The position numbers were made by a program, and so were the translations under genes. This document shows, piece after piece, positions 1-17,145 of a stretch of 17,145 nucleotides of DNA. The number at the start of each line of letters is the position of its first letter. The stretch's first letter is position 1. The stretch is from a virus (taxonomy: Duplodnaviria > Heunggongvirae > Uroviricota > Caudoviricetes). The DNA lies in the IMG/VR virus record IMGVR_UViG_3300029843_000117. One strand, 5' to 3'. A model generated the notes under the pieces. The model did no database searches, was not told the origin of the DNA, and worked only from the letters and a program-made list of their open reading frames with translations.

Positions 1-162
1 TGGATGCAGCGCAGTCAGCAAACGCTCGAACAATGGTTTGAACCCGGAACCGCCCGCGCGCTTGATGCGTTTATTGAGGGGATGACGCTGCATTTTGTCA
101 CCGACCGTAAGCCGCTATCGCGCGAGGAGATTTTGAGGATGGTTGAGAGGGTTGCAGGGTAG
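1..162 (+). CDS. 3' end of an upstream chromosomal gene (partial; start lies outside the window)
   Basis: Frame 1 is open from position 1 to a TAG stop at 160-162 (..[34 protein letters not shown]). It lies outside the inferred prophage boundary. By synteny with rybB it could be the TetR-family gene ybjK/rcdA, but that is not verified. Confidence 0.45.
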
Positions 163-178
163 TAGATAAGTTTTAGAT

Positions 179-192
179 AACAAAAAACCCAT
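179..192. repeat. Left copy of the 14-bp direct repeat; candidate attL core
   Basis: aacaaaaaacccat is identical to 17066-17079. It lies between the chromosomal gene stop (162) and the int stop (267). Confidence 0.6.
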
Positions 193-211
193 TTATGTAA
201 ACGGGTTAATG

Positions 212-244
212 AAAACAATAAGTTAGGTTAAAAACAATAAGTTA
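212..244. repeat. Two perfect 14-bp direct repeats (aaaacaataagtta) spaced 19 bp apart; possible Int arm-type or accessory-factor sites in the arm next to int
   Basis: Copies at 212-225 and 231-244, read directly from the sequence, located between the att core and the 3' end of int. The function is inferred only. Confidence 0.35.
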
Positions 245-266
245 AGTTGGTGGTCAGTGGTGGTTA

Positions 267-1319
267 TTACGGGGTAATGCCAACCGCTGCCGCCACTTTG
301 TCGCCACTTGGCAGCGTTGCCAGAGGATTGAAACGGAGCGCCGTTTCTAGATGATCCGGTGCCAGATGTGCGTAACGCATAGTCATTTTTATATCGTGGT
401 GTCCGAGAATTTTTTGTAAGGCCAGAATGTTTCCACCCGACATCATGAAGTGCGCCGCAAACGTATGGCGCAGAACGTGTGTGAGTTGACCGCGAGGGAG
501 CACGATAGACGTTTTTTCCATCACGGATAAAAATTGAAAATAGCAGTCTGTGAAGAAATTGAACCCATCAAGCGCCATGATCTCTTCGTAAAGCTCTTTA
601 CTGATAGGGATGCTTCTGTTTTTCTTCCCCTTCGTTCTGACAAAGGTAATTCGGTATTTGGTCACCTGTGAGCGGGTAAGATTTACGGCTTCACGCCAGC
701 GTGCGCCTGTGCTTAAGCATATCTTAACTACCAGTGCCAGAATTGGGTCCTGACGTTTGCAATCAGCCAGCAATTCAACAATCTGCTCATGGGTAAGCCA
801 TGCCATCTCTTTTTCTGCGATGGTGAATTTTCGCATGTTCTCCAGTGGGTTCGGATACGACCATTCGCCCAGACGGGATAGTTCGCTAAAAACACTACTT
901 AGATAGCTTTGCTCCAGGTTAATGGTGACCGGGCTTGCTCCTTTCTTCCATTTCTCGCTGAAGTAGATCTCGCCTGTCAGGCGTTTATCTCGATAGTGGG
1001 CAAACATTTTAGAGGTGAGATCGGTTGCAAGAGGATTGCCCAGAGCGTCAACCATCAACAGCAATTTGTCATAGACATGCTGCCCAGCTGTCAGAGATTT
1101 ACCATGTAGTTTGAACCATAGCTCAACCACGTCTTTCAGTGTTCGACGATCCACTGATTCACCCAGCCAGGGCTTTGCTTCGGTTTCTTCCATCGTGTGG
1201 CGCTCAAAAGCCAGTGCTTCGCCTTTGGTGGCGAATTGTTTACGCACACGACGCCCACTTCGTCCGGCGGGGTAACATTCGCAAAGCCATTTCCCTGTGG
1301 TTAGTTTTCGTACTGCCAT
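267..1319 (-). CDS. int: Phage integrase, tyrosine recombinase (P2/186 Int-like)
   Basis: 350-aa ORF. The C-terminal region has tyrosine-recombinase hallmarks (..LPRGQLTHVLRHTFAAHFMMSGGNILALQKILGHHDIKMTMRYAHLAP..). It sits next to the att core at the prophage edge. Confidence 0.9.
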   Translation of the reverse strand: MAVRKLTTGKWLCECYPAGRSGRRVRKQFATKGEALAFERHTMEETEAKPWLGESVDRRTLKDVVELWFKLHGKSLTAGQHVYDKLLLMVDALGNPLATDLTSKMFAHYRDKRLTGEIYFSEKWKKGASPVTINLEQSYLSSVFSELSRLGEWSYPNPLENMRKFTIAEKEMAWLTHEQIVELLADCKRQDPILALVVKICLSTGARWREAVNLTRSQVTKYRITFVRTKGKKNRSIPISKELYEEIMALDGFNFFTDCYFQFLSVMEKTSIVLPRGQLTHVLRHTFAAHFMMSGGNILALQKILGHHDIKMTMRYAHLAPDHLETALRFNPLATLPSGDKVAAAVGITP

Positions 1320-1320
1320 A

Positions 1321-1401: not shown

Positions 1402-3078
1402 CTAAGCAACATGTAGTTCATCGTTGGCGGAAGTGGCTGCTTTGCGCTCCTGCTCAATAGCTAGAGACTCTCTATATTCTTTCGCCTCTGCAAACATTGT
1501 CCAGTGGGCGTTGATGTTCATGTCTTCAATAACTGATTTGATTTCTTTTAAATTTACGTTAAAAAACTCTTTTCGTGAGTTAATTTTATTGACCTGCTTT
1601 TCGTTGAAAACTTTATGCAGATGGTTTTCTAATGATGGTGCATCATCACTATAAATCATCGCATGAACATCGAACGAAAAAGGAACACTAGCATCTCCGA
1701 GTTCACGAACACGATCAAGTGGTTCAAGGCGGCGTGTCATTCCAATTTTATATACATCTTCGCCAAATGAACCAATATTACTAATGATATAGACGTGGCC
1801 TGATCTGGTTTGTTGAGCCATAGAAATAGCTCGTTGATTTTTAGCTTCAGCTTCTTCATATTTTAACTGTAGTTCAGCTATTTTTTGCTCTAAAGCTAAG
1901 CGTTGTTCTTCATTTGCAAGCATAAGTTCTTTCGTTGCTTTATTTATAGCTTGCTGAATAGCTTTTTCTTCTTTTTCAGCTTCTTTTATCGCTTTTTCAT
2001 ATTCTCTACGAGCTCTTTCCTCTTCACGAAGCTGTTCTTTAATCCTTCTTTGCTCTTCTTTTTCTTCGAGCATAATTTCATTAACTGCTACACCCCATTT
2101 TAGCTCGTTGAGTCTTGCCTGAAGATAGATGTCACTTATTTTTGCGGACCTAAAGGCAGAGCCATTGTAATTTACTAGTTGAAATGCATCTTTTATTTCT
2201 TGGGAAAGTTTTCCAAAATTGTTGTGTTTGACTTTTGATAAAATACTGTCAACTCTTCCATTGAAGGCATCCAAAACAAAGTTTATGGCAGTATTACGCC
2301 TGTTTTGCTCAACATAATCACACGAAGCAGCTTTATTAGTTTTTATTAATGATTTGGTTAACTCTCTGGCTTTTTGTAATTCCTTGCCTGCATCTGTAAA
2401 TTCATAATTTTCTGCCAGCTCATCAAGTACACTACGGTTAGGGATGATCCATTCATCACCATAACCTTCAATTTTATTTTTCATTGATTTTGCAACTGCT
2501 TCATATTTTTCTGCAAACTCTTTAGCTTCATATGCTGAACCAGCAATCTCCTTTGCTCTTTCTTCTGCATCAGAAATAATTTTTACTGCATTGTCATTAG
2601 CATTTGAGATTAGCTCATTTGCTTTATTATTAGCATTATCAAGACGTTCTTTGGCTTTCAGGCGTGCATCGCGAGCGTCTTTGGTGATTGCTATAGCTTC
2701 GCTATTAGCGTTGCTTATTGTCATCTGAGCTTGATAATTTGCTTCGTTTACTGTTTTAGCCGCCTTAATTTGGGCTTCATCTATTTTTTGCTTGGCTATT
2801 GAGTCCGCATTTTTTATCTTATTCTCTGCATCCATTACTGCGCTGTGCAATTCTTCGTATTGCCACAATGGTGCTGCTCGCCCTTCAAGCTCTGATAATT
2901 CTCGTACGGTCTGTGCTAGTTTTTCTTGATTTTCAATCAGTTGGTTAGAAAGGGCTATGTTGTTAGCTGTCAGGTTATCTATAGCCGCTTTGTGTTTTTT
3001 ACTTTGTTTAAATAATATTACAGCTAGAACAGGGGCGAGAAATGCTAATAAGAGTATAACGATGGCAAATGAATTCAT
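1402..3078 (-). CDS. Cargo protein: N-terminal transmembrane helix, long coiled-coil region, C-terminal T5orf172/GIY-YIG-like domain (DUF4041-type architecture)
   Basis: 558-aa ORF. N-terminus is hydrophobic (FAIVILLLAFLAPVLAVILF). The middle is K/E/A-rich with heptad-like pattern. The C-terminus reads GHVYIISNIGSFGEDVYKIGMTRRLEPLDRVRELG..., resembling the T5orf172 (GIY-YIG-like) signature. Visibly AT-rich relative to neighbours. A plausible RBS (aaggat) lies upstream, and it ends 20 bp before the cI stop. Confidence 0.8.
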   Translation of the reverse strand: MNSFAIVILLLAFLAPVLAVILFKQSKKHKAAIDNLTANNIALSNQLIENQEKLAQTVRELSELEGRAAPLWQYEELHSAVMDAENKIKNADSIAKQKIDEAQIKAAKTVNEANYQAQMTISNANSEAIAITKDARDARLKAKERLDNANNKANELISNANDNAVKIISDAEERAKEIAGSAYEAKEFAEKYEAVAKSMKNKIEGYGDEWIIPNRSVLDELAENYEFTDAGKELQKARELTKSLIKTNKAASCDYVEQNRRNTAINFVLDAFNGRVDSILSKVKHNNFGKLSQEIKDAFQLVNYNGSAFRSAKISDIYLQARLNELKWGVAVNEIMLEEKEEQRRIKEQLREEERARREYEKAIKEAEKEEKAIQQAINKATKELMLANEEQRLALEQKIAELQLKYEEAEAKNQRAISMAQQTRSGHVYIISNIGSFGEDVYKIGMTRRLEPLDRVRELGDASVPFSFDVHAMIYSDDAPSLENHLHKVFNEKQVNKINSRKEFFNVNLKEIKSVIEDMNINAHWTMFAEAKEYRESLAIEQERKAATSANDELHVA

Positions 3079-3098: not shown

Positions 3099-3695
3099 TT
3101 AATTCGAGACTATTGTACTTCTTATACAAGCAACCACTTCAATATCAGAAAATGCACATTCAAAGCTATTCTCTGCTGTTGTAATTTTAATCATTCCTTT
3201 AGGAAGCCTTGTGATTTTTCGAATGGAATAGGTTCCGTCGATATTGATTAACCAGTTTCCATCAAGTACTTCAGAAAATTTTTGATCACAAATGTATGTG
3301 ACGAGTCCATCCTGAACAACAATTGGTGATGAAAGGTTTGCAGGAAGAAATGATGAATCGAAGACATATGAACCGTCTTCAATCATTTTGCCTGCGGCAA
3401 GGCGAAACTTAACAAGCTCTTCTGTAGCTGCTGTCAGCGAGCTTTGCTTAAGGCCTTGTCCGGTAGTTAACCATTTGAGGGAGGTTCCTGTTTCAAGAGC
3501 ACATTGGATTATCCAGTCAGCAGGAAATGTATCCCGCAAATACCTGTTCGCTAGTGTGCTTTTTGATACTTCCAAGTGATCAGCTAAAGCCTGTCGTGTC
3601 GTAAAGCCATAGGCTTCGACTAATCGCTCAATCGCAGCCTTACCACCTTTATTGGGATTTATTTTGATCTCACTTGGGTACTTTGATGTTGACAT
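3099..3695 (-). CDS. cI: Phage 186 CI-like immunity repressor (N-terminal HTH, C-terminal oligomerisation domain)
   Basis: 198-aa ORF with an HTH-like N-terminus (GFTTRQALADHLEVSKSTLANRYL). Size and position (divergent from apl/cII, upstream of int) match 186 cI. Confidence 0.7.
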   Translation of the reverse strand: MSTSKYPSEIKINPNKGGKAAIERLVEAYGFTTRQALADHLEVSKSTLANRYLRDTFPADWIIQCALETGTSLKWLTTGQGLKQSSLTAATEELVKFRLAAGKMIEDGSYVFDSSFLPANLSSPIVVQDGLVTYICDQKFSEVLDGNWLINIDGTYSIRKITRLPKGMIKITTAENSFECAFSDIEVVACIRSTIVSN

Positions 3696-3717: not shown

Positions 3718-3724
3718 CAGTTTT

Positions 3725-3740: not shown

Positions 3741-3790
3741 TTGTCACGATTACTACAGGCTCACCACAAGCCAATAGGAGATGTTGCATC

Positions 3791-4012
3791 ATGACCCCTA
3801 ACATTTCAATAACTCTGAATACGCCACACGTCACAATCGAGCGTTATAGCGAACTTACTGGTCTTTCAATCGACACAATCAACGATATGTTGGCGGATGG
3901 TCGCATTCCTCGGCATCGTCTTCGTAAAGACAAGAAAAGAGAAAAGGTAATGATCAACCTTGCTGCTCTTACCGTTGATGCACTTACTGATTGCAATGTT
4001 GTATTCAACTAG
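3791..4012 (+). CDS. apl: Apl/Cox-like excisionase and transcriptional regulator
   Basis: 73-aa ORF from an internal ATG, with RBS aggag at 3776-3780. It is the first gene of the rightward operon opposite cI. The ORF-track start at 3674 would overlap cI and is unlikely. Confidence 0.6.
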
Positions 4013-4044
4013 TTCCATTTTGGGATACATCAGAGGTGTCGACC

Positions 4045-4554
4045 ATGTTTGATTACCAAGTTTCCAAACATCCACATTTTGATGAAGCCTGTCGTGCATT
4101 CGCACTGCGCCACAATCTGGTGCAACTGGCAGAACGTGCGGGCATGAATGTGCAGATTCTGCGGAACAAGCTGAACCCAGCTCAACCTCATTTATTAACC
4201 GCACCAGAAATCTGGCTGCTTACCGATCTGACTGAAGATTCAACGTTGGTAGATGGTTTTCTGGCACAGATTCATTGTCTGCCATGTGTACCGATTAATG
4301 AGGTAGCAAAAGAGAAACTGCCGCATTACGTCATGAGCGCAACTGCAGAGATCGGGCGTGTTGCAGCAGGTGCGGTATCTGGTGATGTAAAAACTAGTGC
4401 CGGTCGTCGTGATGCTATCAGCAGCATTAACTCTGTAACACGACTGATGGCTCTGGCTGCTGTTTCATTGCAAGCCCGTTTACAGGCTAATCCTGCGATG
4501 GCGAGTGCAGTTGATACCATGACTGGCCTTGGTGCTTCATTCGGTTTGCTGTGA
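4045..4554 (+). CDS. cII: CII-like lysogeny establishment regulator
   Basis: 169-aa ORF starting [24 protein letters not shown], with RBS agaggtg at 4031-4037. Size and position match 186 CII. Confidence 0.6.
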
Positions 4555-4561
4555 GGTGTTT

Positions 4562-4953: not shown

Positions 4954-4975
4954 CTGCGTTTGGGGGATATGAAGT

Positions 4976-5317
4976 ATGGCAATTAATGGCGCTGCAGCAA
5001 CTGTTCCATTAAGCCCCGGTGAACGCCTGAATGGACTTAATCACATTGCGGAGTTAAGGGCGAAAGTTTTTGGCCTGAATATTGAGTCAGAGCTTGAGCG
5101 GTTTATTAAAGATATGCGTGATCCACGGGATATCAATAATGAACAAAATAAACGGGCACTGGCTGCCATATTCTTTATGGCAAAAATTCCAGCTGAACGT
5201 CATAGCATCAGCATTAATGAGCTGACCACTGACGAAAAGCGGGAGCTGATTAAAGCAATGAATCATTTTCGTGCAGTGGTGAGCTTATTTCCCAGACGGC
5301 TAACCATGCCGAATTAA
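4976..5317 (+). CDS. Hypothetical early protein
   Basis: 113-aa ORF with RBS ggggga 8 nt upstream, in the same orientation as the early operon. Confidence 0.55.
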   Translation: MAINGAAATVPLSPGERLNGLNHIAELRAKVFGLNIESELERFIKDMRDPRDINNEQNKRALAAIFFMAKIPAERHSISINELTTDEKRELIKAMNHFRAVVSLFPRRLTMPN

Positions 5318-5384
5318 CCAACTAATGAAATTAATGGCGTAAACCCGCCGGGCATCCCTTTATCTAAATTCAGGAGAATTGATT

Positions 5385-5618
5385 ATGCGTAATATTGAAA
5401 CCCTCACGACTAAAACCGGACCGGATGACGCAGGGCTTAATATTTTACTGACAGAGGCTCGTCTGGAAGAACGCCGGGCAAGGGCTGAAGCAATGGCTGC
5501 TCGCCTTGATAGCCTGGCGTGTCATATCTCATCCCGCCAGCTAAACCACGTGGAAGCGGCAGAACTGCTGCGCGTGACTGCTGAAGCAATCCAGAACGAA
5601 GCGCAGGAGATCCACTAA
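5385..5618 (+). CDS. Hypothetical early protein
   Basis: 77-aa ORF from ATG at 5385, with RBS caggag at 5371-5376. Its stop overlaps the next start (ATAATG). Confidence 0.55.
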   Translation: MRNIETLTTKTGPDDAGLNILLTEARLEERRARAEAMAARLDSLACHISSRQLNHVEAAELLRVTAEAIQNEAQEIH

Positions 5619-5845
5619 TGGCTGATGCAATGGATCTCGTACAGCAGCGCGTTGAAGAAGAACGCCAGCGCCATATCCGTGCAGCCCGTGCCAAATCACC
5701 GGGCGTGTCACGCGTACTTTGCATTGAATGTGAAGCGCCAATTCCGCCAGCACGACGCCGCGCCATTCCGGGAGTGCAGCTTTGCATTACCTGTCAGGAA
5801 ATCGCAGAACTGAAAGGCAAACATTACAACGGAGGTGCTGTATGA
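5618..5845 (+). CDS. TraR/DksA-family C4-type zinc-finger protein
   Basis: 75 aa with CIECEAP..(17)..CITCQ, a CxxC-N17-CxxC arrangement typical of phage and plasmid TraR-like proteins. Translationally coupled to its neighbours. Confidence 0.75.
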   Translation: MADAMDLVQQRVEEERQRHIRAARAKSPGVSRVLCIECEAPIPPARRRAIPGVQLCITCQEIAELKGKHYNGGAV

Positions 5846-6699
5846 GCACCATCCTGAAATGGGCGGGAAATAAAACCGCCATTATGCCAGAACTGAAAAA
5901 ATACCTTCCTGCTGGCCCGCGACTGGTTGAACCTTTCGCGGGTTCCTGTGCTGTGATGATGGAAACGGATTATCCCAGCTATCTGGTTGCGGATATTAAT
6001 CCTGATTTAATCAACCTCTATAAAAAGGTTGCCGCTGATTGTGAATCGTTTATATCTCGCGCCAGAGTTTTATTTGAGATCGCAAACAGGGAGGTGGCTT
6101 ATTACAACATAAGGCAGGAGTTTAACTGCTCAACTGAAATTACTGATTTCATGAAAGCGGTATATTTCCTGTATCTCAATCGTCACGGTTACCGTGGTTT
6201 ATGTCGCTATAACAAGAGCGGGCATTTCAACATTCCCTACGGTAATTATAAAAATCCGTATTTCCCTGAAAAAGAACTTCGCACATTTGCAGAAAAAGCC
6301 CAGCGAGCAACGTTTATCTGCGCCAGCTTTGATGAAACGCTGGCGATGTTGAAGGCGGGAGATGTGGTGTATTGCGATCCGCCATATGACGGTACGTTTT
6401 CCGGCTATCACACTGATGGTTTCACTGAAGATGACCAGTATCACCTGGCATCCGTTCTTGAACATCGGTCATCAGAAGGACATCCGGTCATTGTTTCTAA
6501 CAGTGACACATCCCTGATCCGTTCGCTGTATCGCAATTTTACTCACCACTATATCAAGGTAAAACGCAGCATCGGTGTGGCAGCTGGCGAGGGTAAATCA
6601 GCAACAGAAATCATTGCTGTTTCCGGGCCGCGCTGCTGGATGGGATTTGATTATTCGCGTGGCGTGGATAGTTCTGCCGTGTACGGAGTACGTGCATGA
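5842..6699 (+). CDS. dam: DNA adenine methyltransferase (Dam-like, N6-adenine)
   Basis: 285 aa from ATG 5842, with RBS ggaggtg at 5831-5837. Contains the SAM-binding motif ILKWAGNK near the N-terminus and the catalytic DPPY motif ([10 protein letters not shown]). Confidence 0.85.
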
Positions 6700-9136
6700 G
6701 TCATGCCGATATGAACAACTGCTGCGGCTTTAACGAGGCTGCCGCAGCATTCTCATGGAACAGCCCGAAAAAGGCCATTAACCCTTATCTGGACCCGGCG
6801 GAAGTTGCGCCGGTTTCTACGCTTTCAAACCTGATCACTCTGTACGCTGCCGATAACGAGCAGGAACAGTTGCGCCGCGAGGCACTGAGTGATCAGGTCT
6901 GGGAGCGTTATTTCTTTAATGAATCACGTGATCCTGTCCAGCGCGAAATGGAGCAGGATAAGCTCATTAGCCGGGCAAAGCTGGCGCATGAGCAGCAGCG
7001 TTTTAATTCAGACATGGTCATTCTGGCGGACGTCAACGCCCAGCCTTCCCATATCAGCAAGCCGCTGATGCAACGTATTGAATACTTCAGCAGCCTGGGC
7101 AGGCCAAAGGCTTATTCCCGCTATTTACGTGAGACGATTAAGCCATGTCTGGAACGACTGGAGCATGTACGCGACAGTCAGCTATCTGCATCTTTTCGCT
7201 TTATGGCAAGCCATGAAGGGCTGGACGGCCTGCTGATCCTGCCTGAAATGAGTCAGGATCAGGTGAAACGCCTGTCCACCTTGGTAGCTGCGCATATGAG
7301 TATGTGCCTTGATGCAGCTTGTGGTGATTTGTATGCCACCGATGACGTTAAGCCAGAAGAAATCCGCAAGACATGGGAAAAGGTGGCAGCGGAAACCCTG
7401 CGTCTGGATGTCATCCCACCTGCGTTTGAGCAACTCCGTCGGAAAAGAAACCGCCGTAAACCCGTGCCGTATGAACTCATTCCGGGTTCGCTGGCGCGTA
7501 TGTTGTGCGCCGACTGGTGGTATCGGAAATTATGGAAGATGCGTTGCGAATGGCGGGAAGAGCAGTTGCGCGCTGTTTGCCTGGTCAGCAAAAAAGCATC
7601 TCCTTATGTCAGCTATGAAGCCGTGATGCATAAACGTGAGCAGCGCCGTAAGTCGCTGGAGTTTTTCCGTTCTCATGAACTGGTGAACGAAGACGGCGAC
7701 ACGCTGGACATGGAGGATGTGGTAAACGCCAGCAGCAGCAACCCTGCGCATCGCCGCAATGAGATGATGGCCTGTGTTAAAGGTCTGGAGCTTATCGCGG
7801 AAATGCGCGGTGACTGCGCCGTTTTCTACACTATCACCTGTCCGTCGCGTTTCCATTCCACGCTAAATAACGGCAGACCAAACCCGACCTGGACAAACGC
7901 GACGGTAAGACAAAGCAGCGATTATCTGGTCGGCATGTTTGCTGCATTTCGTAAGGCGATGCACAAAGCCGGGTTGCGCTGGTATGGCGTGCGGGTGGCT
8001 GAGCCGCATCATGATGGCACAGTTCACTGGCACCTGTTGTGTTTCATGCGCAAAAAAGACCGCCGTGCCATCACTGCATTACTGCGTAAGTTTGCCATCC
8101 GTGAAGACCGCGAGGAGCTGGGCAATAACACTGGGCCGCGCTTTAAGTCTGAGTTGATTAACCCGCGCAAAGGAACGCCGACAAGCTACATCGCGAAATA
8201 TATCAGTAAGAACATTGACGGTCGTGGTCTGGCTGGCGAGATCAGCAAGGAAACGGGTAAATCTCTGCGTGATAACGCTGAATACGTGAATGCCTGGGCG
8301 TCTCTGCATCGTGTTCAGCAATTCCGCTTCTTTGGTATTCCGGGGCGTCAGGCTTACCGTGAACTTCGCTTGCTGGCTGGTCAGGCGGCAAGGCAACAGG
8401 GTGACAAAAAAGCAGGTGCGCCGGTACTGGATAACCCGCGTCTTGATGCCATTCTGGCTGCTGCTGATGCTGGTTGTTTTGCCACCTACATCATGAAGCA
8501 GGGCGGCGTACTGGTTCCCCGTAAATATCACCTCATCAGAACCGCTTATGAAATCAACGAAGAGCCGACCGCCTATGGCGATCACGGCATTCGTATTTAT
8601 GGCATCTGGTCACCCATTGCAGAGGGCAAGATCTGCACTCATGCAGTGAAGTGGAAAATGGTTCGTAAAGCCGTTGACGTTCAGGAGGCGGCAGCCGACC
8701 AGGGCGCTTGCGCCCCTTGGACTCGTGGCAATAACTGTCCCCTTGGACTCGTGGCAATAACTGTCCCCTTGCTGAAAATTTGTACCAACAAGGGAAAGAC
8801 AAATCAGCTGATGGGGATACCAGAACGGATATCACCCGCATGGATGACAAGGAATTGCACGATTACCTGCACAGTATGAACAAAAAAGAGCGTCGGGAAC
8901 TGGCTGCAAGGTTACGCCTGGTGAAACCGAAACGGCGTAGAGACTACAAACAGCGAATTACAGATCATCAGCGACAGCAGCTCGTCTATGAACTGAAGTC
9001 CAGAGGATTTGATGGCAGCGAGAAAGAGGTCGATTTACTCCTTCGCGGCGGCAGCATTCCGTCAGGAGCAGGCCTGCGTATTTTCTATCGGAACCAGCGT
9101 TTGCAGGAAGATGATAAGTGGCGGAACCTGTATTAA
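6696..9136 (+). pseudogene. A: Replication initiation endonuclease A (P2 gpA-like, HUH rolling-circle initiator), frameshifted by a 26-bp tandem duplication
   Basis: The frame-0 ORF 6696-8879 (727 aa) carries the HUH-like motif TVHWHLLCF and the tyrosine motif YIAKYISK. Downstream, ORF 8780-9136 in frame 2 continues the protein exactly if one 26-bp repeat copy (8739-8764) is removed, which would give a continuous ORF of about 804 aa. Confidence 0.75.
8713..8771. repeat. Tandem direct repeat: 26-mer ccccttggactcgtggcaataactgt, two full copies plus a partial 7 bp
   Basis: 8713-8738 and 8739-8764 are identical base for base, and 8765-8771 repeats the first 7 bp. 26 is not a multiple of 3, so the duplication shifts the A reading frame. 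Confidence 0.9.
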
Positions 9137-9228
9137 TTACGCGGGTTAACAATTCGTGCTCTTAATAATACCAGGTATATCAGGCTGATGAACGTAAAAA
9201 AACGTTTTACATCAGTAAGATTATTATA

Positions 9229-9248
9229 TACTGTAAATATAAACAGTG
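9229..9248. promoter_or_regulatory. LexA box (SOS operator): TACTGT-N8-ACAGTG
   Basis: tactgtaaatataaacagtg matches the consensus CTGT-N8-ACAG with an AT-rich spacer. It overlaps a -10-like tatact/tatata and lies about 45 bp upstream of the ORF at 9290. Confidence 0.7.
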
Positions 9249-9289
9249 GTTATGCATACAGTATTGCTTGTGGTGTCATAGGAGGAAAG

Positions 9290-9478
9290 ATGCAGGACTA
9301 TTTTTTGGAGTCTTTGAAGCTCCAGCGCATTGATTTTTTTCTTAAGCTTGTAGCGGCTAGTGAGTGTAGTGATGAAGAGAAGGGGCTGGCCCTGCAGTGG
9401 GTTTCTGAACTGACAGATGAACTCATGGCAAAAATCAGAACCCACGAATACAACCGCTCAATGGATGTCATCAGCTGA
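9290..9478 (+). CDS. Small hypothetical protein, first gene of a putative SOS-inducible operon (Tum-like region)
   Basis: 62 aa from ATG 9290, with RBS aggagga at 9280-9286, downstream of the LexA box. Confidence 0.5.
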   Translation: MQDYFLESLKLQRIDFFLKLVAASECSDEEKGLALQWVSELTDELMAKIRTHEYNRSMDVIS

Positions 9479-9488
9479 GGTGACTTTT

Positions 9489-9722
9489 ATGCGCATTGAA
9501 ATAATGATCGATAAAGAGCAGAAGATTAGCCAGTCTACCCTGGACGCCCTTGAATCCGAGCTTTACCGCAATCTGCGCCCCCTGTATCCCAAAACGGTAA
9601 TTCGCATTCGCAAAGGTAGCTCTAACGGTGTGGAACTGACCGGACTGCAACTGGACGAAGAAAGGAAGCAAGTGATGAAAATTATGCAGAAGGTGTGGGA
9701 AGACGACAGCTGGCTGCATTAA
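9489..9722 (+). CDS. DinI-family protein (DinI/Tum C-terminal-like)
   Basis: 77 aa: MRIEIMIDKEQ..LDALESELYRNL..YPKTVIRIRKG...KQVMKIMQKVWEDDSW. Resembles E. coli DinI as recalled (MRIEV..IDALAGEL...WESADDW). RBS gaggtg at 9477-9482. Confidence 0.7.
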   Translation: MRIEIMIDKEQKISQSTLDALESELYRNLRPLYPKTVIRIRKGSSNGVELTGLQLDEERKQVMKIMQKVWEDDSWLH

Positions 9723-9752
9723 GAAACGTTGCCCCCAAGAGGATTCATTCTG

Positions 9753-9923
9753 ATGGGGGACTATTTTGGGCAACGAGTGAAACGAGGCGTTAGGTGGACG
9801 GCCATTTTGATAAGTGATCGTCCGCTTTTTGTTCTGAGTTCAAGCGATGGATTTAACACACTGGTTGAAGCAGAAGTATCTAAGTTCAATTTATATTATT
9901 TGAAGGGCACTGGTCTGATGTAG
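9753..9923 (+). CDS. Small hypothetical ORF
   Basis: 56 aa from an internal ATG with RBS aagagga at 9737-9743. No recognisable motif. Confidence 0.25.
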   Translation: MGDYFGQRVKRGVRWTAILISDRPLFVLSSSDGFNTLVEAEVSKFNLYYLKGTGLM

Positions 9924-10009
9924 TACGATTTTTGCCGGAGATGGCATGTTCTATATTGATCTCATCCATATAATGATTGGTATTATTAGCTTAGTTTAAA
10001 GAGGATTGA

Positions 10010-11587
10010 ATGGATATCAACTATGTTGTTTCAAAAATGGGGTTCGTAGATGATCTTATTAATGCAGGTTCATTTGATTCTGCCTATAAAAATGTAAAGG
10101 ATATTCTTAACGGTATCGATGAGATAAATACAATCAAAGAAAATAGAATAATTATATTATCTAATTTGGCCGGAAATCTTATTGATATCGGAAGTTTTAG
10201 TAATGTAAAAAATATAGCGGAGGAAGGCTTAAATATCTTTATAAACAATAAAAATGAATTTCTGACTATAATGAAAGAATCCTTATATTACTATAACTTG
10301 GCAAATGGAATGAGCGCAGTTCTTGATTTTAATCCTAATGACAATGCAGATATTGATAGTTTCATTAAGCTGAATGATGTAAAAAATAATTACTGGAAAG
10401 CGTTTAAACTTTCACAAGAAGATGGATGGGTGCCCCCTGATTTAATAGTTAATCTAGCTAATGTATTAAAAAAACAATATCGTATATCTGAATCAATGGA
10501 TTATTATGAACAAGCAATATCTATTGATAACTCAATTCCTCAGGCGTGGGTAAACAGATCTGAGGCATTAGAATTGCTTAATGAATTATCTACAACATAT
10601 ACATATAAAATGATTAAAGAAGTTATTCGAGGTTATGAGTGTGCAATAAAGTCAGGGAAATGTTTTCCTTCATGGAAGGTTGCTCTTCAAAGAAAAATAA
10701 AGTACAACGAAAGTATATTGAGTGAATCATGTGTATATGGCATAGAGGATATAAGTACAGATGAAAGGCTCACGCAGGAGGAGTATGATACTTTATCAAA
10801 CTACCAGAGGTTTTGTATAGATAATAATCTAATGTTGTCTGATCATTCGCTATATTGCAATTGTTATGCGTCATCTAAAGATAATATAACTATTGCTACC
10901 ACCGAGGAAGGTGTGTTTGGTGATTTTATAGTGCCAATGGAAATGGTGTTAAATAGACTTAAAGCTGAGTATTCCTTAGCACGAAAAATGTTTTTTGAAT
11001 ATAAGGTTGATAGTGAGTTTTTTGATGAGGATTCGGAGGTATGTTATTCTGAATTGTATAATGGAGAAATATTGTATGAAAATGTTGAGAAGTTAAGGGT
11101 TGCATTTAGAGCTTGCTTTGGTATCTTGGATAAAATAGCAGTTGCTCTGTGTCAATTATTTGATTTAAAACCAGATAGAGGACATATATACTTTCATAAC
11201 TTCTGGCGGATTAGTGATGAAAAAAGAAAGCTTAAAATAAACAAAATAAATAATAAAGGATTGCTGGGTTTGTTTAGTATTGCTATGGATTTGAATGATA
11301 AAAATGGTGAGCTTGCTTTTTTTAAAGAATGGAGGAATGATTTAGAACATAAACTGTTAGTTATTCACGAGAAAGACATGTTAGTTGATTTATATAATTC
11401 TTATGGGTTTTTTGATGAGGTGAGGTTTATTGAGAAAGAAAAGTTTGAGAAACAGCTCTTACAACTCATGAAAATTGTGAGATCAGCCGTTATTCTTTTT
11501 GTGTTTACCATACGTATAGAGGGGAAAAAAAGTATTCCTAAAGATATGTTGACCATTAAAAATACCATCGAGAGAAAAGTATTGTAG
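10010..11587 (+). CDS. Cargo protein with TPR-like N-terminal region and C-terminal HEPN-like domain (Rx4H motif); candidate abortive-infection or defence RNase
   Basis: 525-aa ORF, strongly AT-rich. RBS gagg at 10001-10004. TPR-like segment SMDYYEQAISIDNSIPQAWVNRSEALELLNE. C-terminal FFKEWRNDLEHKLLVIHEKD contains R-x4-H, the HEPN signature. A perfect -10 TATAAT lies at 9969-9974. Confidence 0.8.
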   Translation: MDINYVVSKMGFVDDLINAGSFDSAYKNVKDILNGIDEINTIKENRIIILSNLAGNLIDIGSFSNVKNIAEEGLNIFINNKNEFLTIMKESLYYYNLANGMSAVLDFNPNDNADIDSFIKLNDVKNNYWKAFKLSQEDGWVPPDLIVNLANVLKKQYRISESMDYYEQAISIDNSIPQAWVNRSEALELLNELSTTYTYKMIKEVIRGYECAIKSGKCFPSWKVALQRKIKYNESILSESCVYGIEDISTDERLTQEEYDTLSNYQRFCIDNNLMLSDHSLYCNCYASSKDNITIATTEEGVFGDFIVPMEMVLNRLKAEYSLARKMFFEYKVDSEFFDEDSEVCYSELYNGEILYENVEKLRVAFRACFGILDKIAVALCQLFDLKPDRGHIYFHNFWRISDEKRKLKINKINNKGLLGLFSIAMDLNDKNGELAFFKEWRNDLEHKLLVIHEKDMLVDLYNSYGFFDEVRFIEKEKFEKQLLQLMKIVRSAVILFVFTIRIEGKKSIPKDMLTIKNTIERKVL

Positions 11588-11909
11588 TATATTTTCATCG
11601 AGCGATGAAACGGTCTGTTTTTCTTTATAGTTTTGTCATAAAAAAGAGATTTCCTGCTTAAAATTTGGCTATTACAGAGCAACTATGTATGTTCCTCGCT
11701 CACAGTAGAGCTTCATCTTTGTAAGTCTGTATGTTTCGTTTTTCAAGTGGTCATTCAGATACGGACTTTCACTTCTCTTAGACAGTGCATGACTATGCTG
11801 CATGAAATCGCATGATCGTTTAAGGATCGTTTTTGCTAAGGCTCGCCAGAACTAGCGGGCTTTTACGTAGAACATGCAGGTGCATGAAAACCACTACATA
11901 AAGCGGGCA

Positions 11910-11928
11910 GGCGTGGCGGGGATACGAG
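11910..11928. other. Candidate cos site (cohesive-end sequence) of the P2/186 type
   Basis: ggcgtggcggggatacgag begins with GGCGTGGCGGGGA, matching my recollection of the 186/P2 19-nt cohesive end (GGCG[A/T]GGCGGGGAAAGCA.). The location between the accessory region and the 3' end of Q matches the P2 map. Confidence 0.5.
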
Positions 11929-12133
11929 CGCGCACTCTGGGGTAAAATGGTCAAAATCCACCGCAATTTACTGGCTCGGGAACGTAGTTAGTTTTGTAGG
12001 TATAAACGGCTCTCACGTTAGATAGGCATGCAGGATGTGTTAAATCGTTGTGATGAAGTTAACGGTGACTGAGACAGTTTAGGTCTAAGATATAACTTCT
12101 GGGTTAGTTAAAAATTGGAATAGTAAGACATTT

Positions 12134-12430
12134 ATGAAAACTACTTATAGCTATGATTTTCAATATATGCGCAAAGGTCAGGATCGCCCTGATGATGATG
12201 GAGAGGTTGTAGGGTGTAATTCAGAAGACAACTCGCTTTTGATGCTTCCAAATGTGGGAGACTACGTAACAATTACGAATAAGGGTGGGCGTGCTCAATT
12301 TGATGGGCGGGTGAAAACAAGGCTTTTCAATTACCTACGCATTGCTGATGGTCATGTTCATTGCTCCATTTGCATTGTAGTTGAGGAAGTTGATATGGAC
12401 TCCGTATGGGGGGCACTAATTAAAGAATAA
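12134..12430 (+). CDS. Hypothetical 98-aa protein between cos and Q
   Basis: ORF with a weak RBS and no recognisable motif (contains HCSIC). It occupies a space that is short and non-coding in P2 as I recall it. Confidence 0.4.
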   Translation: MKTTYSYDFQYMRKGQDRPDDDGEVVGCNSEDNSLLMLPNVGDYVTITNKGGRAQFDGRVKTRLFNYLRIADGHVHCSICIVVEEVDMDSVWGALIKE

Positions 12431-12460
12431 TAGAATGCCTGCAAATGCAGGCGCTTTAAT

Positions 12461-13501
12461 TTACTCAGAAATATCTAAGTTGTAAGATTCAAAGCAAATC
12501 ACTTTTTCACCTAGCCAGTTGTTCAGCTCTTGCAGCCGCTTTTGCAGTGGCATCAGTTCATTGCGGACAAACACTCGACTAGCCTTCTCCACATCCCCAA
12601 ACCCCCCGACATTATTAGGCATTATCCCCATCATTTGTGGCGGCACACGATGCGCCGCCATCATGTCGTCCCGGCTCACGTTCTTGATATTCAGGAACTC
12701 ATCCTTCGCCGCCACTTCTGACAACGGGATAATCTGAAGCCCGTCCTTTTTACCGTTAGGCGAGTACATAAACAGGTTACGGAAGTTACCAGGACCTTTG
12801 GCGCTTTTCATCGCATTGCGGAGGTTGTTCACATCCTCCTGGTTCTGCGCAGCATCGGTCATGTACATGATGAAGCCTGCATGACTGCCGTTAATGTAAT
12901 ACTTGCGGCGGAACAGCGTGGCGGACTCGTTGAGCAGAGCTGACGGAATGGCAGAAAGATAACCGGGCAGGCCGTAGATCTCCTGGTTAATGTCCGGTTC
13001 CATTAGATGAAAAATGCTGCCTTTCGTGAACTGATACGGCTGGGTTGTCATACCGTATTGCACAAACCAGTAGGTATCCAGGTCTAACCCGCGTCGGGTG
13101 TATTTTGCCAGTGCAGGCTCAAGGGCGATAACTTCACCGAAGCGGTTCGTGCGTTTCTCCAGGTAGGCGTTACCAAAAACCAGATAGTCCTGCACAAAAC
13201 GCGAAAAAGCCTGCTGGCTGAGCAGCGGGTGAGGGATGTAGGTGCTGGTCAGAATGTTGCACTTCACTGCAATCGGTGAGCTGTGATGCACGGCGGCGCG
13301 GAAGGTTCGCGCCAGTCCGTCGAAACTCACAGGCGGCTCATACCAACGATCCATCTGTACGCATTCCACATAGTCCAGCAGTTCGCGGCGGTCCAGAACA
13401 GGAACGGGATCACCGAAGCTGAATGCTTCGGCTGAAGTCTGGCTTTTATGCTGGATCTGTTTCGTCGACGCAGCGCGGTTCTTCTTACTCTTTCCCATCA
13501 A
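12461..13501 (-). CDS. Q: Portal vertex protein (P2 gpQ-like)
   Basis: 346 aa (P2 Q is about 344 aa as recalled). Leftward orientation and a 4-bp overlap with the upstream terminase gene match the P2 QP operon. Confidence 0.85.
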   Translation of the reverse strand: MMGKSKKNRAASTKQIQHKSQTSAEAFSFGDPVPVLDRRELLDYVECVQMDRWYEPPVSFDGLARTFRAAVHHSSPIAVKCNILTSTYIPHPLLSQQAFSRFVQDYLVFGNAYLEKRTNRFGEVIALEPALAKYTRRGLDLDTYWFVQYGMTTQPYQFTKGSIFHLMEPDINQEIYGLPGYLSAIPSALLNESATLFRRKYYINGSHAGFIMYMTDAAQNQEDVNNLRNAMKSAKGPGNFRNLFMYSPNGKKDGLQIIPLSEVAAKDEFLNIKNVSRDDMMAAHRVPPQMMGIMPNNVGGFGDVEKASRVFVRNELMPLQKRLQELNNWLGEKVICFESYNLDISE

Positions 13502-15264
13502 AAAATCTCCACAATATTGCTGGTATTGGCGGACTCGCCCTGCAGCGGTTCGTTAAACAGTGCGTGCATTGTTGCCCAGGCCAGATCGGCATGGCTGGCT
13601 TCTTCGCTGCGGCTGGCTTCATAGGTCGGGCGGTTGCCACTGGCAGTGGTAGCGCGACGGATTGCCATAAATGACTGCGCAATGTCGGTGTGCCCGGCGT
13701 CAAACTCCAGACGGCGGTGGCTGATAATGTCGTAGGCCTTGAGTACCAGGGCGTTTTTAACGTTGGGGTTGTAGACAAACTCCCTGACGGCAGGAAAAAA
13801 CGCTTTCACGTTCTCGTAAACCCCGTGACCGACGCCGGTCGAGTCGATGCCGATATAGGTCACGTTGTACTGTTCGGTCAGTTTTTTGATGGCGTCAGCC
13901 TGGGCGCGGAAGTCCATCCCGCGCCACTGGTGACGCTCAAGAATGCGGAACTTACCACCCGGCACGGCTGGCGGAGCCACCACCACGCATCCGGCACTAT
14001 CGCCGTTCTGCGTACCTTTTGCCGGGTCATAACCGATCCACACCTCGCGCCAGCCAAACGGGCGCAGCGCCAGTGCATGAAAGTCGGTCCAGACTTCCCA
14101 GCTGTCCACCATGCACGCCTGCAGCTCGCTGAGCGGAAACACGGACGCGAGATCGTCCACAAACTCGCACATCAGCAGGTTCTGGTATTCGTCCGGGCTG
14201 TACTCCATGCGCAACTGGTCAAGGTCGAACAGGTTACAGCCGCCGCGCACCGCATCTTCCACGGTGACTATCTGGCGGTATTGCCCGTCTGCGCACAGCA
14301 GGCCGGGGGCCAGATTGCTGTGGGACAGGTCGATGTCCACCTTATCGGCTTTGTTGCGCCCACGGTTGAACAGCGCACCGGACCAGAACGGATAAGCACT
14401 GTGTGTCAGACTGGATGGCGTGGAAAAATAGGTTTGTCGCCATTTTTTGTGAATAGCCATACCGGAAGCCACTTTGCGCAGCTCCTGGAATTTCGGTATC
14501 CAGAAATATTCATCCAGATACAGGTTGCCGTGGTAACTCTGGGCCGTGCGGGCATTGGTGCCGAGGAAGTAAAGCGTGGCCCCGTTAGGAAGCACCATCG
14601 GATCGCCTTTCAGCTCCACCTCCACTTCTTTGGCAAAGTCGATGATGTACTGTTTAAAGACGTGAGCCTGAGCCTTGCTGGCAGAAAGGAAAATCTGGTT
14701 ACGCCCGGTCAGCAGGGCGTCAATCAGGGCTTCACGGGCAAAGTAAAAGGTCGCGCCGATCTGGCGAGACTTCAGCAGGTTGCGGATGCGATTGGTTTTT
14801 CCGGCTTCCCACCAGTGGCGCTGGTAGTTGAACATGGAGGAATGGAAGATTTCTTCCAGCTTCTCAATCTGTTCATCGGTGAAAACATTCTTTTCCGGCT
14901 GACGGCGCGGGCCTTTGTTGCGGTTGGCGACGTTAGGGTTTAAGTCGGCTTCGTTGCCGCCATTGTTAAACTTGCCGATGCGCGCGTGGCGCTCCGACTG
15001 GCGCGCCAGCAGGTCAATCTCTTTGAAATCTTTCCCTTCTTTGTGCTCCTTCATAATGAGCTGGCAGTAGCGTGCGGCGGTGGTGAGCTGCATCTGATCC
15101 AGCGGCCCATAGTCACCCCACTTGTCGCGTTTTTTCCAGCTATGAACGGTTGCAACTTTCTCGCCCAGCATTTCAGCAATGCGGGCGACGCGGTATCCCT
15201 GAAAGTACAGCAGCATGGCCTGCCGACGGGGATCGAGATCTGCGGGTGTCAGTGTGGTGTTCAT
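13498..15264 (-). CDS. P: Terminase large (ATPase) subunit (P2 gpP-like)
   Basis: 588 aa (P2 P is about 590 aa as recalled). Divergent from O across a 142-bp intergenic region, as in P2. Confidence 0.85.
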   Translation of the reverse strand: MNTTLTPADLDPRRQAMLLYFQGYRVARIAEMLGEKVATVHSWKKRDKWGDYGPLDQMQLTTAARYCQLIMKEHKEGKDFKEIDLLARQSERHARIGKFNNGGNEADLNPNVANRNKGPRRQPEKNVFTDEQIEKLEEIFHSSMFNYQRHWWEAGKTNRIRNLLKSRQIGATFYFAREALIDALLTGRNQIFLSASKAQAHVFKQYIIDFAKEVEVELKGDPMVLPNGATLYFLGTNARTAQSYHGNLYLDEYFWIPKFQELRKVASGMAIHKKWRQTYFSTPSSLTHSAYPFWSGALFNRGRNKADKVDIDLSHSNLAPGLLCADGQYRQIVTVEDAVRGGCNLFDLDQLRMEYSPDEYQNLLMCEFVDDLASVFPLSELQACMVDSWEVWTDFHALALRPFGWREVWIGYDPAKGTQNGDSAGCVVVAPPAVPGGKFRILERHQWRGMDFRAQADAIKKLTEQYNVTYIGIDSTGVGHGVYENVKAFFPAVREFVYNPNVKNALVLKAYDIISHRRLEFDAGHTDIAQSFMAIRRATTASGNRPTYEASRSEEASHADLAWATMHALFNEPLQGESANTSNIVEIF

Positions 15265-15310
15265 GGCACAAACCTACAGCCTTGAATGAAGGCTTTCCCC
15301 GCCTGCGGTT

Positions 15311-15328
15311 TGTGTGGTTGTCGGTACA
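15311..15328. promoter_or_regulatory. TGT-N12-ACA element in the P/O intergenic region; candidate Ogr-dependent late-promoter activator site
   Basis: tgt-gtggttgtcggt-aca, centred about 55-60 bp upstream of a plausible O transcription start. P2 late promoters carry TGT-N12-ACA near -55 as recalled. Confidence 0.4.
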
Positions 15329-15406
15329 AATACCGCGCATTGTTTCACTGCCCCCATCACCGCAACCATAAGGCTCCAGTAAGTTTTTTCTAACGGAGCA
15401 CGGCTC

Positions 15407-16174
15407 ATGACAGTGAAAGCAAAGCGTTTTCGCATCGGGGTGGAAGGTGCCACCACCGATGGACGCGAAATCCAGCGTGAATGGCTGGAACAGATGGCAG
15501 CCAGCTACAACCCGGCGGTGTATACCGCGCTGATTAACCTTGAGCACATCAAGTCTTATCTGCCGGACAGCACCTTTAACCGCTACGGCAAGGTGACGGC
15601 GCTGTTTGCTGAAGAAATTACGGAAGGTCCGCTGGCAGGCAAGATGGCATTGTATGCCGACGTTGAGCCAACGGAGTCCCTGGTGGAACTGGTGAAAAAA
15701 GGCCAGAAATTATTCACCTCTATGGAAGTCAGCCCGAAGTTTGCTGATACGGGCAAAGCCTACCTGGTCGGCCTGGCTGCCACTGATGATCCAGCCAGTC
15801 TGGGTACGGAAATGCTGACATTCAGCGCCAGTGCAGCCCATAACCCGCTGGCAAACCGCAAGCAGAATCCTGCCAATCTCTTTACCGCTGCAGAGGAAAC
15901 GGTGATCGAACTGGAAGAAGTCCAGGATGACAAACCGTCCCTGTTTGCCCGCGTCACGGCGTTGTTTACCAAAAAAGAGCAGTCCGATGACGCCCGGTTC
16001 GCTGATGTGCATAAGGCCGTGGAGCTGGTCGCCACTGAGCAGCAGAACCTGAGCGCACGCACCGAAAAATCCCTGTCTGAGCAGGAAGAACGCCTGTCTG
16101 AACTGGAGACTGCTCTGCAGGAGCAGCAATCTGTTATTCATCCGGCAGGGGCAGGGCAAAAGCGCCACTGGTAA
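15407..16174 (+). CDS. O: Capsid scaffolding protein (P2 gpO-like), probably 3'-truncated
   Basis: 255 aa. The N-terminus MTVKAKRFRIGVEGATTDGR resembles P2 gpO (..KFFRIGVEGDTCDGR as recalled). P2 gpO is about 284 aa, and this ORF ends abruptly (..HPAGAGQKRHW*) just before a D-like fragment. Confidence 0.7.
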   Translation: MTVKAKRFRIGVEGATTDGREIQREWLEQMAASYNPAVYTALINLEHIKSYLPDSTFNRYGKVTALFAEEITEGPLAGKMALYADVEPTESLVELVKKGQKLFTSMEVSPKFADTGKAYLVGLAATDDPASLGTEMLTFSASAAHNPLANRKQNPANLFTAAEETVIELEEVQDDKPSLFARVTALFTKKEQSDDARFADVHKAVELVATEQQNLSARTEKSLSEQEERLSELETALQEQQSVIHPAGAGQKRHW

Positions 16175-16184
16175 ACCACTGCCG

Positions 16185-16679
16185 GTGATCACTATCACAC
16201 GGAAGGACGGCGACAGTCACCGCTTTACCCTGGCAGATCGCGGAGCCTACACGGGCGTAATTGCCAGCTGGTTGCATACCCGCGAACCCGCGAAGAAAGA
16301 AAGCACCACGGTGAAGCGTAAGCGCAGGACTAAGAAGCAGAAGAAAGAGCCGGAAGCGAAGCAGGGCGATTACCTGGTGGGGACGGATGAAAACGTGCTG
16401 GTACTTAATCGCACTTATGCCAACCGGAGCAACGCCGAACGAGCGGCGAAAATGCAGTGGGAACGCCTGCAACGCGGTGTTGCGTCATTCTCGCTACAAC
16501 TGGCGGAAGGTCGGGCAGATCTCTACACGGATATGCCTGTGAAGGTCAGTGGCTTTAAACAGCCGATAGATGATGCGGAATGGACCATTACCACCCTGAC
16601 ACATACTGTCAGCCCGGATAATGGTTTTACGACCAGTCTGGAGCTTGAAGTGAGGATTGATGATTTCGAAATGGAATGA
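16185..16679 (+). pseudogene. D: C-terminal fragment of tail protein D (P2 gpD / late control D family)
   Basis: 164-aa ORF immediately upstream of ogr, as D is in P2. It has no proper start context (GTG at 16185, upstream frame open but unrelated). Several kb of structural genes expected between O and D are absent. Confidence 0.55.
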
Positions 16680-16769
16680 TTCTTCGCAATGGAGAACTTT
16701 TAAGTTTGCAAAATGGAATAATGCGGTATCATTATTGTGAATTTAGCAAAAATGGGGAGAACTCGAAAA

Positions 16770-16988
16770 ATGATGATTTGCCCACTGTGTGGAAGTGCCG
16801 CCCATACTCGCAGCAGTTTTCAGGTATCTTCATTGACCAAAGAGCGTTACAACCAGTGCCAGAACATTAACTGCAGCCATACTTTTGTTACCCATGAAAC
16901 TTTTGTTCGTTCGATTGCAACGCCAAAAGAGTCAAATCCGGTTCAGCCGCATCCAATGAAATCAGGACAGGTGGCGCTCTCTCTTTGA
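16770..16988 (+). CDS. ogr: Late gene transcriptional activator Ogr (zinc-finger)
   Basis: 72 aa from ATG 16770, with RBS ggggaga at 16754-16760. MMICPLCGSAAHTRSS..KERYNQCQNINCSHTF..PHPMKSGQ resembles P2 Ogr (MFHCPLCQHAAHARTS..KERYHQCQNVNCSATF..PHPLPSGQ as recalled). Confidence 0.85.
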   Translation: MMICPLCGSAAHTRSSFQVSSLTKERYNQCQNINCSHTFVTHETFVRSIATPKESNPVQPHPMKSGQVALSL

Positions 16989-17065
16989 CTCTGCCGCCAT
17001 TTTGTCGCCATCGTTAAAAAACAGTGTTTCTAACATCATGATTTTAAACAGCTTAAATTTCAGGC

Positions 17066-17079
17066 AACAAAAAACCCAT
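17066..17079. repeat. Right copy of the 14-bp direct repeat; candidate attR core
   Basis: aacaaaaaacccat is identical to 179-192 and overlaps the 3' terminator of the sRNA at 17069-17145. Confidence 0.6.
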
Positions 17080-17145
17080 CAACCTTGAACCGAAATGGCG
17101 GGGTTGATGGGCTCCACAAAATGGGGACATCAAAGAAAAGCAGTG
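17069..17145 (-). ncRNA. rybB: RybB small RNA (sigmaE-dependent Hfq-binding sRNA); its first ~2 nt lie beyond the window
   Basis: The minus strand reads cactgcttttctttgatgtccccattttgtggagcccatcaaccccgccatttcggttcaaggttgatgggtttttt, matching RybB as I recall it (GCCACUGCUUUUCUUUGAUGUCCCCA...GGUUGAUGGGUUUUUU). It ends in an intrinsic terminator hairpin (cccatcaacc / ggttgatggg) plus a U6 tract. Confidence 0.8.

Follow-up and report, generated by a model that had tools for sequence, protein, structure and literature searches.

Anatomy of a defective P2-family prophage integrated at the 3' end of the small RNA gene rybB

The hairpins of sRNA genes were described as general phage targets by Bobay et al. 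(2013), with ryeB and ryeE as earlier examples and with reference to Wassarman 2001, Balbontin 2008 and Williams 2002 (PMC3603311). Comparable attachment sites at the 3' ends of RNA genes are those of P2-type prophages at cyaR/ryeE, ryeB in Salmonella, and tRNA and tmRNA genes (PMC3032704, Table 2; PMC3603311). For rybB itself, Table 2 of Archer et al. (2011) gives 'rybB ncRNA' as the site of the P2-type prophages Rybb*W, Rybb*B and Rybb*Cr, which are carried by E. coli W, B (REL606) and Crooks respectively, Rybb*B being the carrier of retron Ec86 (PMC3032704). Hochhauser, Millman and Sorek (2023) reported an integration hotspot, #29, that is occupied only by Felsduovirus prophages within rybB; these have varied defence systems at dedicated positions, and Bobay et al. 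2013 is cited there (PMC10121019). In K. pneumoniae, the island Kpn38RybB was described by Hudson et al. (2014) as a prophage 'precisely within the gene for RybB' (PMC4048246). Furthermore, in the record of Klebsiella phage 4LV2017 (KY271398.1) attL and attR are annotated as a 19-20-nt sequence, CAGGCAACAAAAAACCCAT, and the right flank is Klebsiella rybB. The gene is therefore an already published attachment site for P2-type prophages, and the integration described below is an event of a known kind at a known site.

The window analysed here is a stretch of 17,145 nucleotides from a virus record (IMG/VR IMGVR_UViG_3300029843_000117, Caudoviricetes). Its positions 193-17065 can be assigned with high confidence to a defective Peduoviridae (P2/186/Fels-2-like) prophage, inserted by its integrase at the 3' end of rybB through conservative site-specific recombination of attP with attB. 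This agrees with the original prediction of a P2-family prophage integrated site-specifically at the rybB 3' end, with a crossover core made up of the 3' half of the terminator stem and the U-tract. The element resembles Rybb*W, Rybb*B and Rybb*Cr in its site, in its phage type, in being defective, as prophages of this group often are, and in its variable cargo. It differs from them in carrying PD-Lambda-1 and HEPN_LA2681 cargo, in having its own deletion junction and in a frameshift of gene A; the 2011 description of those prophages is given without base-level detail of the att sites (PMC3032704). As in the prophages of hotspot #29, there is defence cargo (PD-Lambda-1) and, with the HEPN protein, two variable positions are occupied. 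However, in contrast to the Felsduovirus assignment of that hotspot, the packaging module of the window is closer to Escherichia phage Cartapus and to Klebsiella Elveevirus-type phages (96-97.6% identical at the DNA level) than to Fels-2 (87%), all of these being Peduoviridae. Kpn38RybB and 4LV2017 differ from the element in the window in host genus and in being full-length phages, and their identity block is 19-20 nt as opposed to 14 nt here. The additions made to these precedents are modest, and consist of the base-level anatomy of the site (the core being the 3' half of both the rybB and the int hairpin), the extent of the homology (~25 nt), the presence of two attB alleles and the state of decay of the element.

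RybB (RF00110) was the sole match above threshold when the whole window was searched with Rfam. The covariance-model search that had been proposed as a check returned a full-length call on the minus strand, 17144..17066, in which model positions 1-79/79 are matched with a score of 105.3 bits (gathering score, 40). The gene is assigned to 17066..17145 (minus strand) from this match, from the K-12 annotation and from a 12-bp terminator stem. After alignment, the rybB annotation of K-12 MG1655, 887979..888057(-), corresponds to window positions 17069..17147; the window end falls 2 nt short of the RybB 5' end, and the rybB promoter lies outside the window. The predicted fold of the terminator is a 12-bp stem followed by UUUUUUGUU, the same as in K-12. 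Measured against the K-12 annotation, the overlap of the core with the last 11 nt of RybB, covering the tail of the stem and the U-tract, had been located and described correctly; these nucleotides are AUGGG, from the stem, and UUUUUU.

At the other end of the window is the 3' end of the host gene rcdA (ybjK; 1..162, plus strand, stop codon 160-162), identified from the rcdA annotation under 100%-identical matches in complete genomes. The gene order rcdA-(prophage)-rybB-ybjL was seen in K-12, in one empty-site strain and in one lysogen. In K-12, an arrangement of the form GAACTT...TCTTAA was seen upstream of rybB, where a sigma-E-dependent promoter would be expected. Among the three records whose annotation was compared, a rybB ncRNA feature is present only in the curated K-12 record; in the automated RefSeq annotation of the lysogen E. 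coli MB7671 and of an empty-site strain, rybB and the att sites are both absent. Because such genomes are annotated automatically in this way, the main use of the present analysis is one of correct annotation, as a prophage remnant at a documented hotspot with rybB intact.

The integration could be reconstructed from both sides. The predicted empty site, formed by joining window positions 1-192 to 17080-17145 (258 nt), is contiguous in 4227 of the 5426 complete E. coli genomes, many at 100% identity, and the joined host flanks are exactly the K-12 rcdA-rybB spacer. As had been anticipated, the core is present at the rybB terminator of K-12 and of thousands of prophage-free strains. The predicted attP, in which 16700-17079 is joined to 193-560 (748 nt), is contiguous in Klebsiella phage KP12 with 98.4% identity over 748 nt and with the order ogr-attP-int. 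The order ogr-core-int is also contiguous in three IMG/VR contigs.

Viral contigs and species-representative genomes were scanned for the core together with either arm. Among the fetched loci with identifiable flanking genes there were seven attB sites (flanked by rcdA and rybB), three attP sites (ogr and int), 11 attL sites (rcdA and int) and five attR sites (ogr and rybB). Rfam also called RybB beside the core at 10 other loci, belonging to Escherichia, Citrobacter, Enterobacter, Lelliottia and Atlantibacter. In the set of complete E. coli genomes the ogr-attR-rybB junction was found in 1105/5426 and the rcdA-attL-int junction in 960; roughly one fifth of sequenced E. coli strains carry such a prophage at rybB. 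For comparison, 109 occupied genomes among more than 1,300 strains were counted for hotspot #29 (PMC10121019).

These arrangements are best explained by conservative recombination, catalysed by the tyrosine integrase, in which attP of the phage was joined to attB of the bacterium at the rybB 3' end; as the bases exchanged are identical, every base of RybB is restored at attR. An intact integrase gene lies next to att, a Cox-like excisionase is available as directionality factor, and no observation speaks against integration at rybB. Transposition with duplication of the target was also considered, and was rejected because attP and attB each have one copy of the repeated sequence and the recombining enzyme is a tyrosine integrase.

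The 14-nt sequence AACAAAAAACCCAT is present as exact copies at 179-192 and 17066-17079. With up to one mismatch allowed, 0.04 chance matches are expected, and three or more matches were seen in none of 200 shuffles. A third near-copy with one mismatch (11403-11416, minus strand) was discarded as a chance match; it is a member of another, unrelated family of short repeats (D1) and is located within the HEPN gene. Taken end to end, the similarity runs imperfectly over 26 nt, 167-192 against 17054-17079, with 22/26 positions identical (repeat D7). The attL site (167..192) is made up of host-derived sequence at 167-178 (TAAGTTTTAGAT) and the identity block at 179-192, and its left flank and core are those of the K-12 attB while its right flank is that of the KP12 attP. 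The attR site (17054..17079) is made up of phage-derived sequence at 17054-17065 (TAAATTTCAGGC) and the identity block at 17066-17079. Strand exchange in this integration probably took place within 179-192, because the host allele was kept at attL and the phage allele at attR.

The stretch over which attP and attB are homologous is about 25 nt, (A)AATTTCAGGCAACAAAAAACCCAT. Read on the rybB strand, it comprises AUGGG (the last five nucleotides of the stem), the UUUUUUGUU U-tract and 11-12 nt past the gene. That phage-host identity is limited to the 14 nt of AACAAAAAACCCAT in the present case is because the allele of this host has diverged: E. coli empty sites have two alleles to the left of the core, of which the K-12 type, TAAGTTTTAGAT, is carried by K-12 and by the host of this window, and the other, TAAATTTCAGGC, is identical to the phage. 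By a rough estimate from empty sites, the phage-identical allele is present in about a thousand E. coli genomes. Many E. coli, as well as E. albertii, E. whittamii, Citrobacter, Enterobacter and Atlantibacter, have a native empty site that reads AAATTTCAGGC AACAAAAAACCCAT and is identical to attP over ~25 nt. The phage-identical allele could be ancestral, as other genera have it, or it could be a footprint of integration and excision; if the latter were true, this phage family would repeatedly rewrite the 3' flank of rybB. Separately, in E. coli Nissle 1917 (NZ_CP007799.1) a 92-nt attB query matched three places in the record, and at 913957-914078 it was matched in two pieces spread over 122 nt, which may point to a small duplication, or to an additional att copy, at the Nissle site.

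It had been suggested in the original prediction that the prophage, by supplying the 3' end of the sRNA, could affect RybB termination or stability. This is not supported by the comparison of lysogen and empty site. All 79 nt of RybB, stem and U-tract included, are the same in both, because the core is identical in attP and attB. Past rybB, the first 11 nt of the lysogen read GCCUGAAAUUU, as they do in a natural empty-site allele that is present with 100% identity in E. coli strains and other genera, and therefore the 3' context that rybB has in the lysogen is already present in many prophage-free strains. As far as can be judged from sequence, an effect on RybB termination, on its Hfq-binding U-tail or on its stability is unlikely, and RybB expression would be expected to be unaffected by the integration.

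The opposite reading is that integration alters RybB termination, the position of its 3' end, its binding by Hfq or its stability, with a resulting shift in the sigma-E envelope-stress response; this is very unlikely. The reading can draw on the change from host to phage sequence beyond window position 17054, on the proximity of ogr, which is transcribed toward rybB and stops 78 nt short of the RybB 3' end, and on the literature, where searches gave no experimental study of RybB in lysogens; a search for functional RybB studies in lysogens or for a described rybB attB returned only genome surveys and unrelated work. Besides the unchanged 79 nt and the natural allele that follows them, the frequency of the junction is informative, as one that is carried by about one fifth of the complete genomes of E. 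coli is unlikely to be notably costly. It is also very unlikely that the 3' neighbourhood of the lysogen matters in another way, either through cross-talk between rybB and ogr or through a subtle change at the RybB 3' end, or, in a milder form of this idea, as the footprint in the attB allele considered above. Read-through of strong rybB transcription driven by sigma-E might extend antisense into ogr, which has its stop codon 78 nt from rybB, and the two genes are transcribed toward each other; in this manner envelope stress could influence the activation of the prophage late genes, and vice versa. If RybB expression did differ in lysogens, about one fifth of E. coli strains would have a phage-modified envelope-stress regulator, and the sequence evidence argues against this. 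The preferred reading is that rybB is left as it was.

On the left side, a second and partial terminator-like copy had been proposed to be left at attL. What is present there is instead a complete hairpin with a U-tract, the 5' half of which is built by the phage and which pre-exists in attP. This terminator-like hairpin (179..207, minus strand) was identified by folding and by a terminator scan, and has its stem at 207..186 and its U-tract at 185..179. The stem is of 9 bp, AACCCGUUU / AAAUGGGUU, with the loop ACAU, and is followed by UUUUUUGUU; the fold has an energy of -9.0 kcal/mol (z = -2.2). On the strand of int and 59 nt past the int stop codon, the hairpin takes its 5' half from phage DNA and its 3' half and U-tract from the att core, and the whole structure is already found in the attP of free phage genomes and reaches attL intact. 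Phage-side variants, in which aaaCgggtt becomes aaaTgggtt, gggTt becomes gggCt or the loop is changed, keep all nine pairs. The stem is modest in strength, at -9 kcal/mol with three G-C pairs, and the hairpin is absent from a few elements that share the core.

The hairpin is probably the terminator of int, built by the phage around the sequence that it shares with rybB. In the phage, the core supplies the 3' half and the U-tract of a hairpin, the 5' half of which is located in the P' arm immediately past int, and after integration both int, at attL, and rybB, at attR, would keep a complete terminator. Tyrosine-recombinase core sites are typically imperfect inverted repeats, and the hairpin could for that reason act mainly at the DNA level, as an inverted repeat to which Int or a host factor binds during recombination; its resemblance to an RNA terminator would then be a by-product of copying half of the rybB terminator. 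It may also serve in both capacities, as a terminator and as an Int core-binding element. The 3' half of the stem is indeed constrained by the required match to attB, and the four elements in which the core is shared and the hairpin missing also favour such a role. However, the placement of the hairpin is that of a terminator, as it follows the int stop codon by 59 nt on the sense strand of int and is itself followed by a U-tract. The phage-side variants (C to U and U to C) keep the RNA pairs by way of G.U and A-U, when one of them is a mismatch at the DNA level. Moreover, the arms are separated by 4 nt, too little for the overlap region of a recombinase core site (6-8 bp), and the stretch in which attP and attB are identical is found on one side of the hairpin. 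A mainly DNA-level role is thus unlikely, if still a serious candidate, and the int terminator remains the favoured interpretation. In common with the other small-RNA sites, the integrase targets a 3' hairpin and the attP copy of the displaced end restores the gene. The rybB site differs from them in that only 11 nt of the RNA are within the core, so that almost nothing is 'replaced', and in that the core doubles as half of the phage's own hairpin past int.

Two tandem 18-nt repeats, AAAACAATAAGTTARGTT, are located in the P' arm (212..248; repeat D17), between the core and int, and a motif resembling CAATAAGTTAG recurs in the P' arms of related but divergent attP/attL sites. The repeats are candidate arm-type Int binding sites. 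Inspection by eye of the P arm (16989-17065) for the motifs of these repeats, and of the 25-nt homology for a core-type inverted repeat with a 6-8 bp spacer, yielded nothing convincing. In addition, a 20-nt direct repeat, CTGCCGCCAYTTTGTCGCCA, is present on both phage arms, at 287-306 and 16991-17010, with 19/20 positions identical. One copy is within the C-terminal codons of int and the other is right after the ogr stop codon. The repeat, also conserved in KP12, may be a relic or a site at which a protein binds.

The hallmark P2 gene order is present in the prophage, int-cI-cox/apl-cII...A...Q,P / O...D-ogr-att, and is collinear with KP12. The tyrosine integrase gene (267..1319, minus strand; Pfam Int_N 3e-32, Phage_integrase 7e-22) is intact and encodes 350 aa, all of which (350/350) are identical to KP12 Int; the R...HxxR...H...Y signature is visible in the translation. 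Between int and cI is a cargo defence gene of the PD-Lambda-1 type (1402..3078, minus strand), with DUF4041 and T5orf172 domains (PADLOC 2e-120; Pfam). The regulatory genes that follow encode a 186-type CI repressor (3099..3695, minus strand; Pfam Phage_CI_repr 8e-32, Phage_CI_C 4e-27), a Cox/Apl-like excisionase-repressor (3791..4012, plus strand; phrog_575, 1e-31) and a CII-like regulator (4045..4554, plus strand; phrog_101, 1e-57), the start of the last being taken from the RefSeq annotation of a homologue. Genes for Fil and a DksA-like protein are also present, listed between CII and a Dam-type adenine methylase (5842..6699, plus strand; Pfam MethyltransfD12, 3e-75), and are followed by the replication gene A (6696..9136, plus strand; Pfam Phage_GPA 6e-128), which is frameshifted.

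A second variable hotspot is occupied by a cargo gene with an LA2681-type HEPN domain (10010..11587, plus strand; Pfam HEPN_LA2681, 2e-38), in a region that has no counterpart in KP12. The protein is of 525 aa with the domain at its C-terminus, and its only PADLOC match was a weak TPR-repeat one (3.5e-4), with no defence-system assignment. The cargo of relatives at the two variable positions includes SNIPE-associated, DUF262, AAA ATPase and PIN proteins. The packaging genes are those of the portal protein gpQ (12461..13501, minus strand; Pfam Phage_portal, with 96% identical DNA in Peduoviridae phages) and of the terminase large subunit gpP (13498..15264, minus strand; Pfam Terminase_6N, Terminase_6C and Terminase_5). 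The prophage is closed on the right by an Ogr/Delta-type zinc-finger late-gene activator (16770..16988, plus strand; phrog_603, 8e-30), annotated as ogr/Delta in homologues.

The designation as a P2-family prophage therefore holds, but the element is a defective remnant of 16.9 kb and not a full P2-type genome. In comparison with KP12, it has lost ~17.6 kb between the 3' end of gene O and the middle of gene D, and thereby the genes for the capsid (N), the small terminase, lysis, the baseplate, fibre, sheath and tube, and the tape-measure protein. The deletion junction is at window position 16121/16126, where KP12 coordinate 13960 is followed by 31186. On its left side, the capsid scaffold gene gpO (15407..16174, plus strand) has lost its 3' end, as seen from the match to positions 2-234 of 268 of the Pfam Phage_GPO profile and from BLAST against KP12. 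On its right, tail gene D is left as a C-terminal fragment (16185..16679, plus strand), which matches phrog_12925 and phrog_52 ('tail protein') in their C-terminal parts only, and KP12 gpD from record position 31186 on. A second lesion is found in gene A, where a perfect 26-nt tandem duplication, CCCCTTGGACTCGTGGCAATAACTGT, present in two copies at 8713-8764 (repeat D4), shifts the frame. The open reading frame is of 727 aa, and becomes one of 804 aa when one copy is removed, 795/804 of which are then identical to KP12 gpA. With gene A broken and the virion and lysis genes gone, the element is no longer a functional phage.

The O-D' fusion of E. coli MB7671 (at ~16984 of that locus) was considered as the same deletion, and this was rejected upon direct comparison, which places its breakpoints at 13894 to 31392 in KP12 coordinates. 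As the breakpoints differ from those of the window, similar late-region deletions arose independently. Part of the tape-measure gene is retained in other strains. The occurrence of an O-D' fusion in MB7671, the shortened versions present in several other genomes and a passage on Typhimurium in PMC3632133 could be counted in favour of a helper-dependent, satellite-like element that deliberately keeps only its int, immunity, replication, portal and terminase genes. Such a satellite is scarcely credible here, given that gene A is frameshifted by the 26-nt duplication and that gpO and gpD are severed mid-gene. Most relatives at the rybB site are full length, with the match stopping near 16129 and resuming elsewhere, and the DNA on both sides of the junction is 95-97% identical to complete phages. 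Independent deletions are, moreover, the usual pattern of prophage decay, and it is as a decaying prophage that the element is best described.

Several database records met in the course of the comparison have unusual features. The KP12 record (OM835953.1) is labelled Vequintavirinae and 'partial sequence', yet it is a collinear P2-type genome; its taxonomy line looks wrong, and the true host is uncertain. A 42-kb 'plasmid' that contains the core and rybB, NZ_CP148327.1, was considered as an excised or transducing form, which was rejected because a prophage end is joined in it to chromosomal genes. It consists of the right end of a prophage, from the tail genes through ogr, followed by rybB and by ybjL to potH, and is most likely an assembly artefact. 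Finally, a 724-nt contig from an assembly of Actinoallomurus acaciae (NZ_JBHLZP010001226.1) has an Escherichia-type rcdA end, the att site and rybB, and is almost certainly a contamination.
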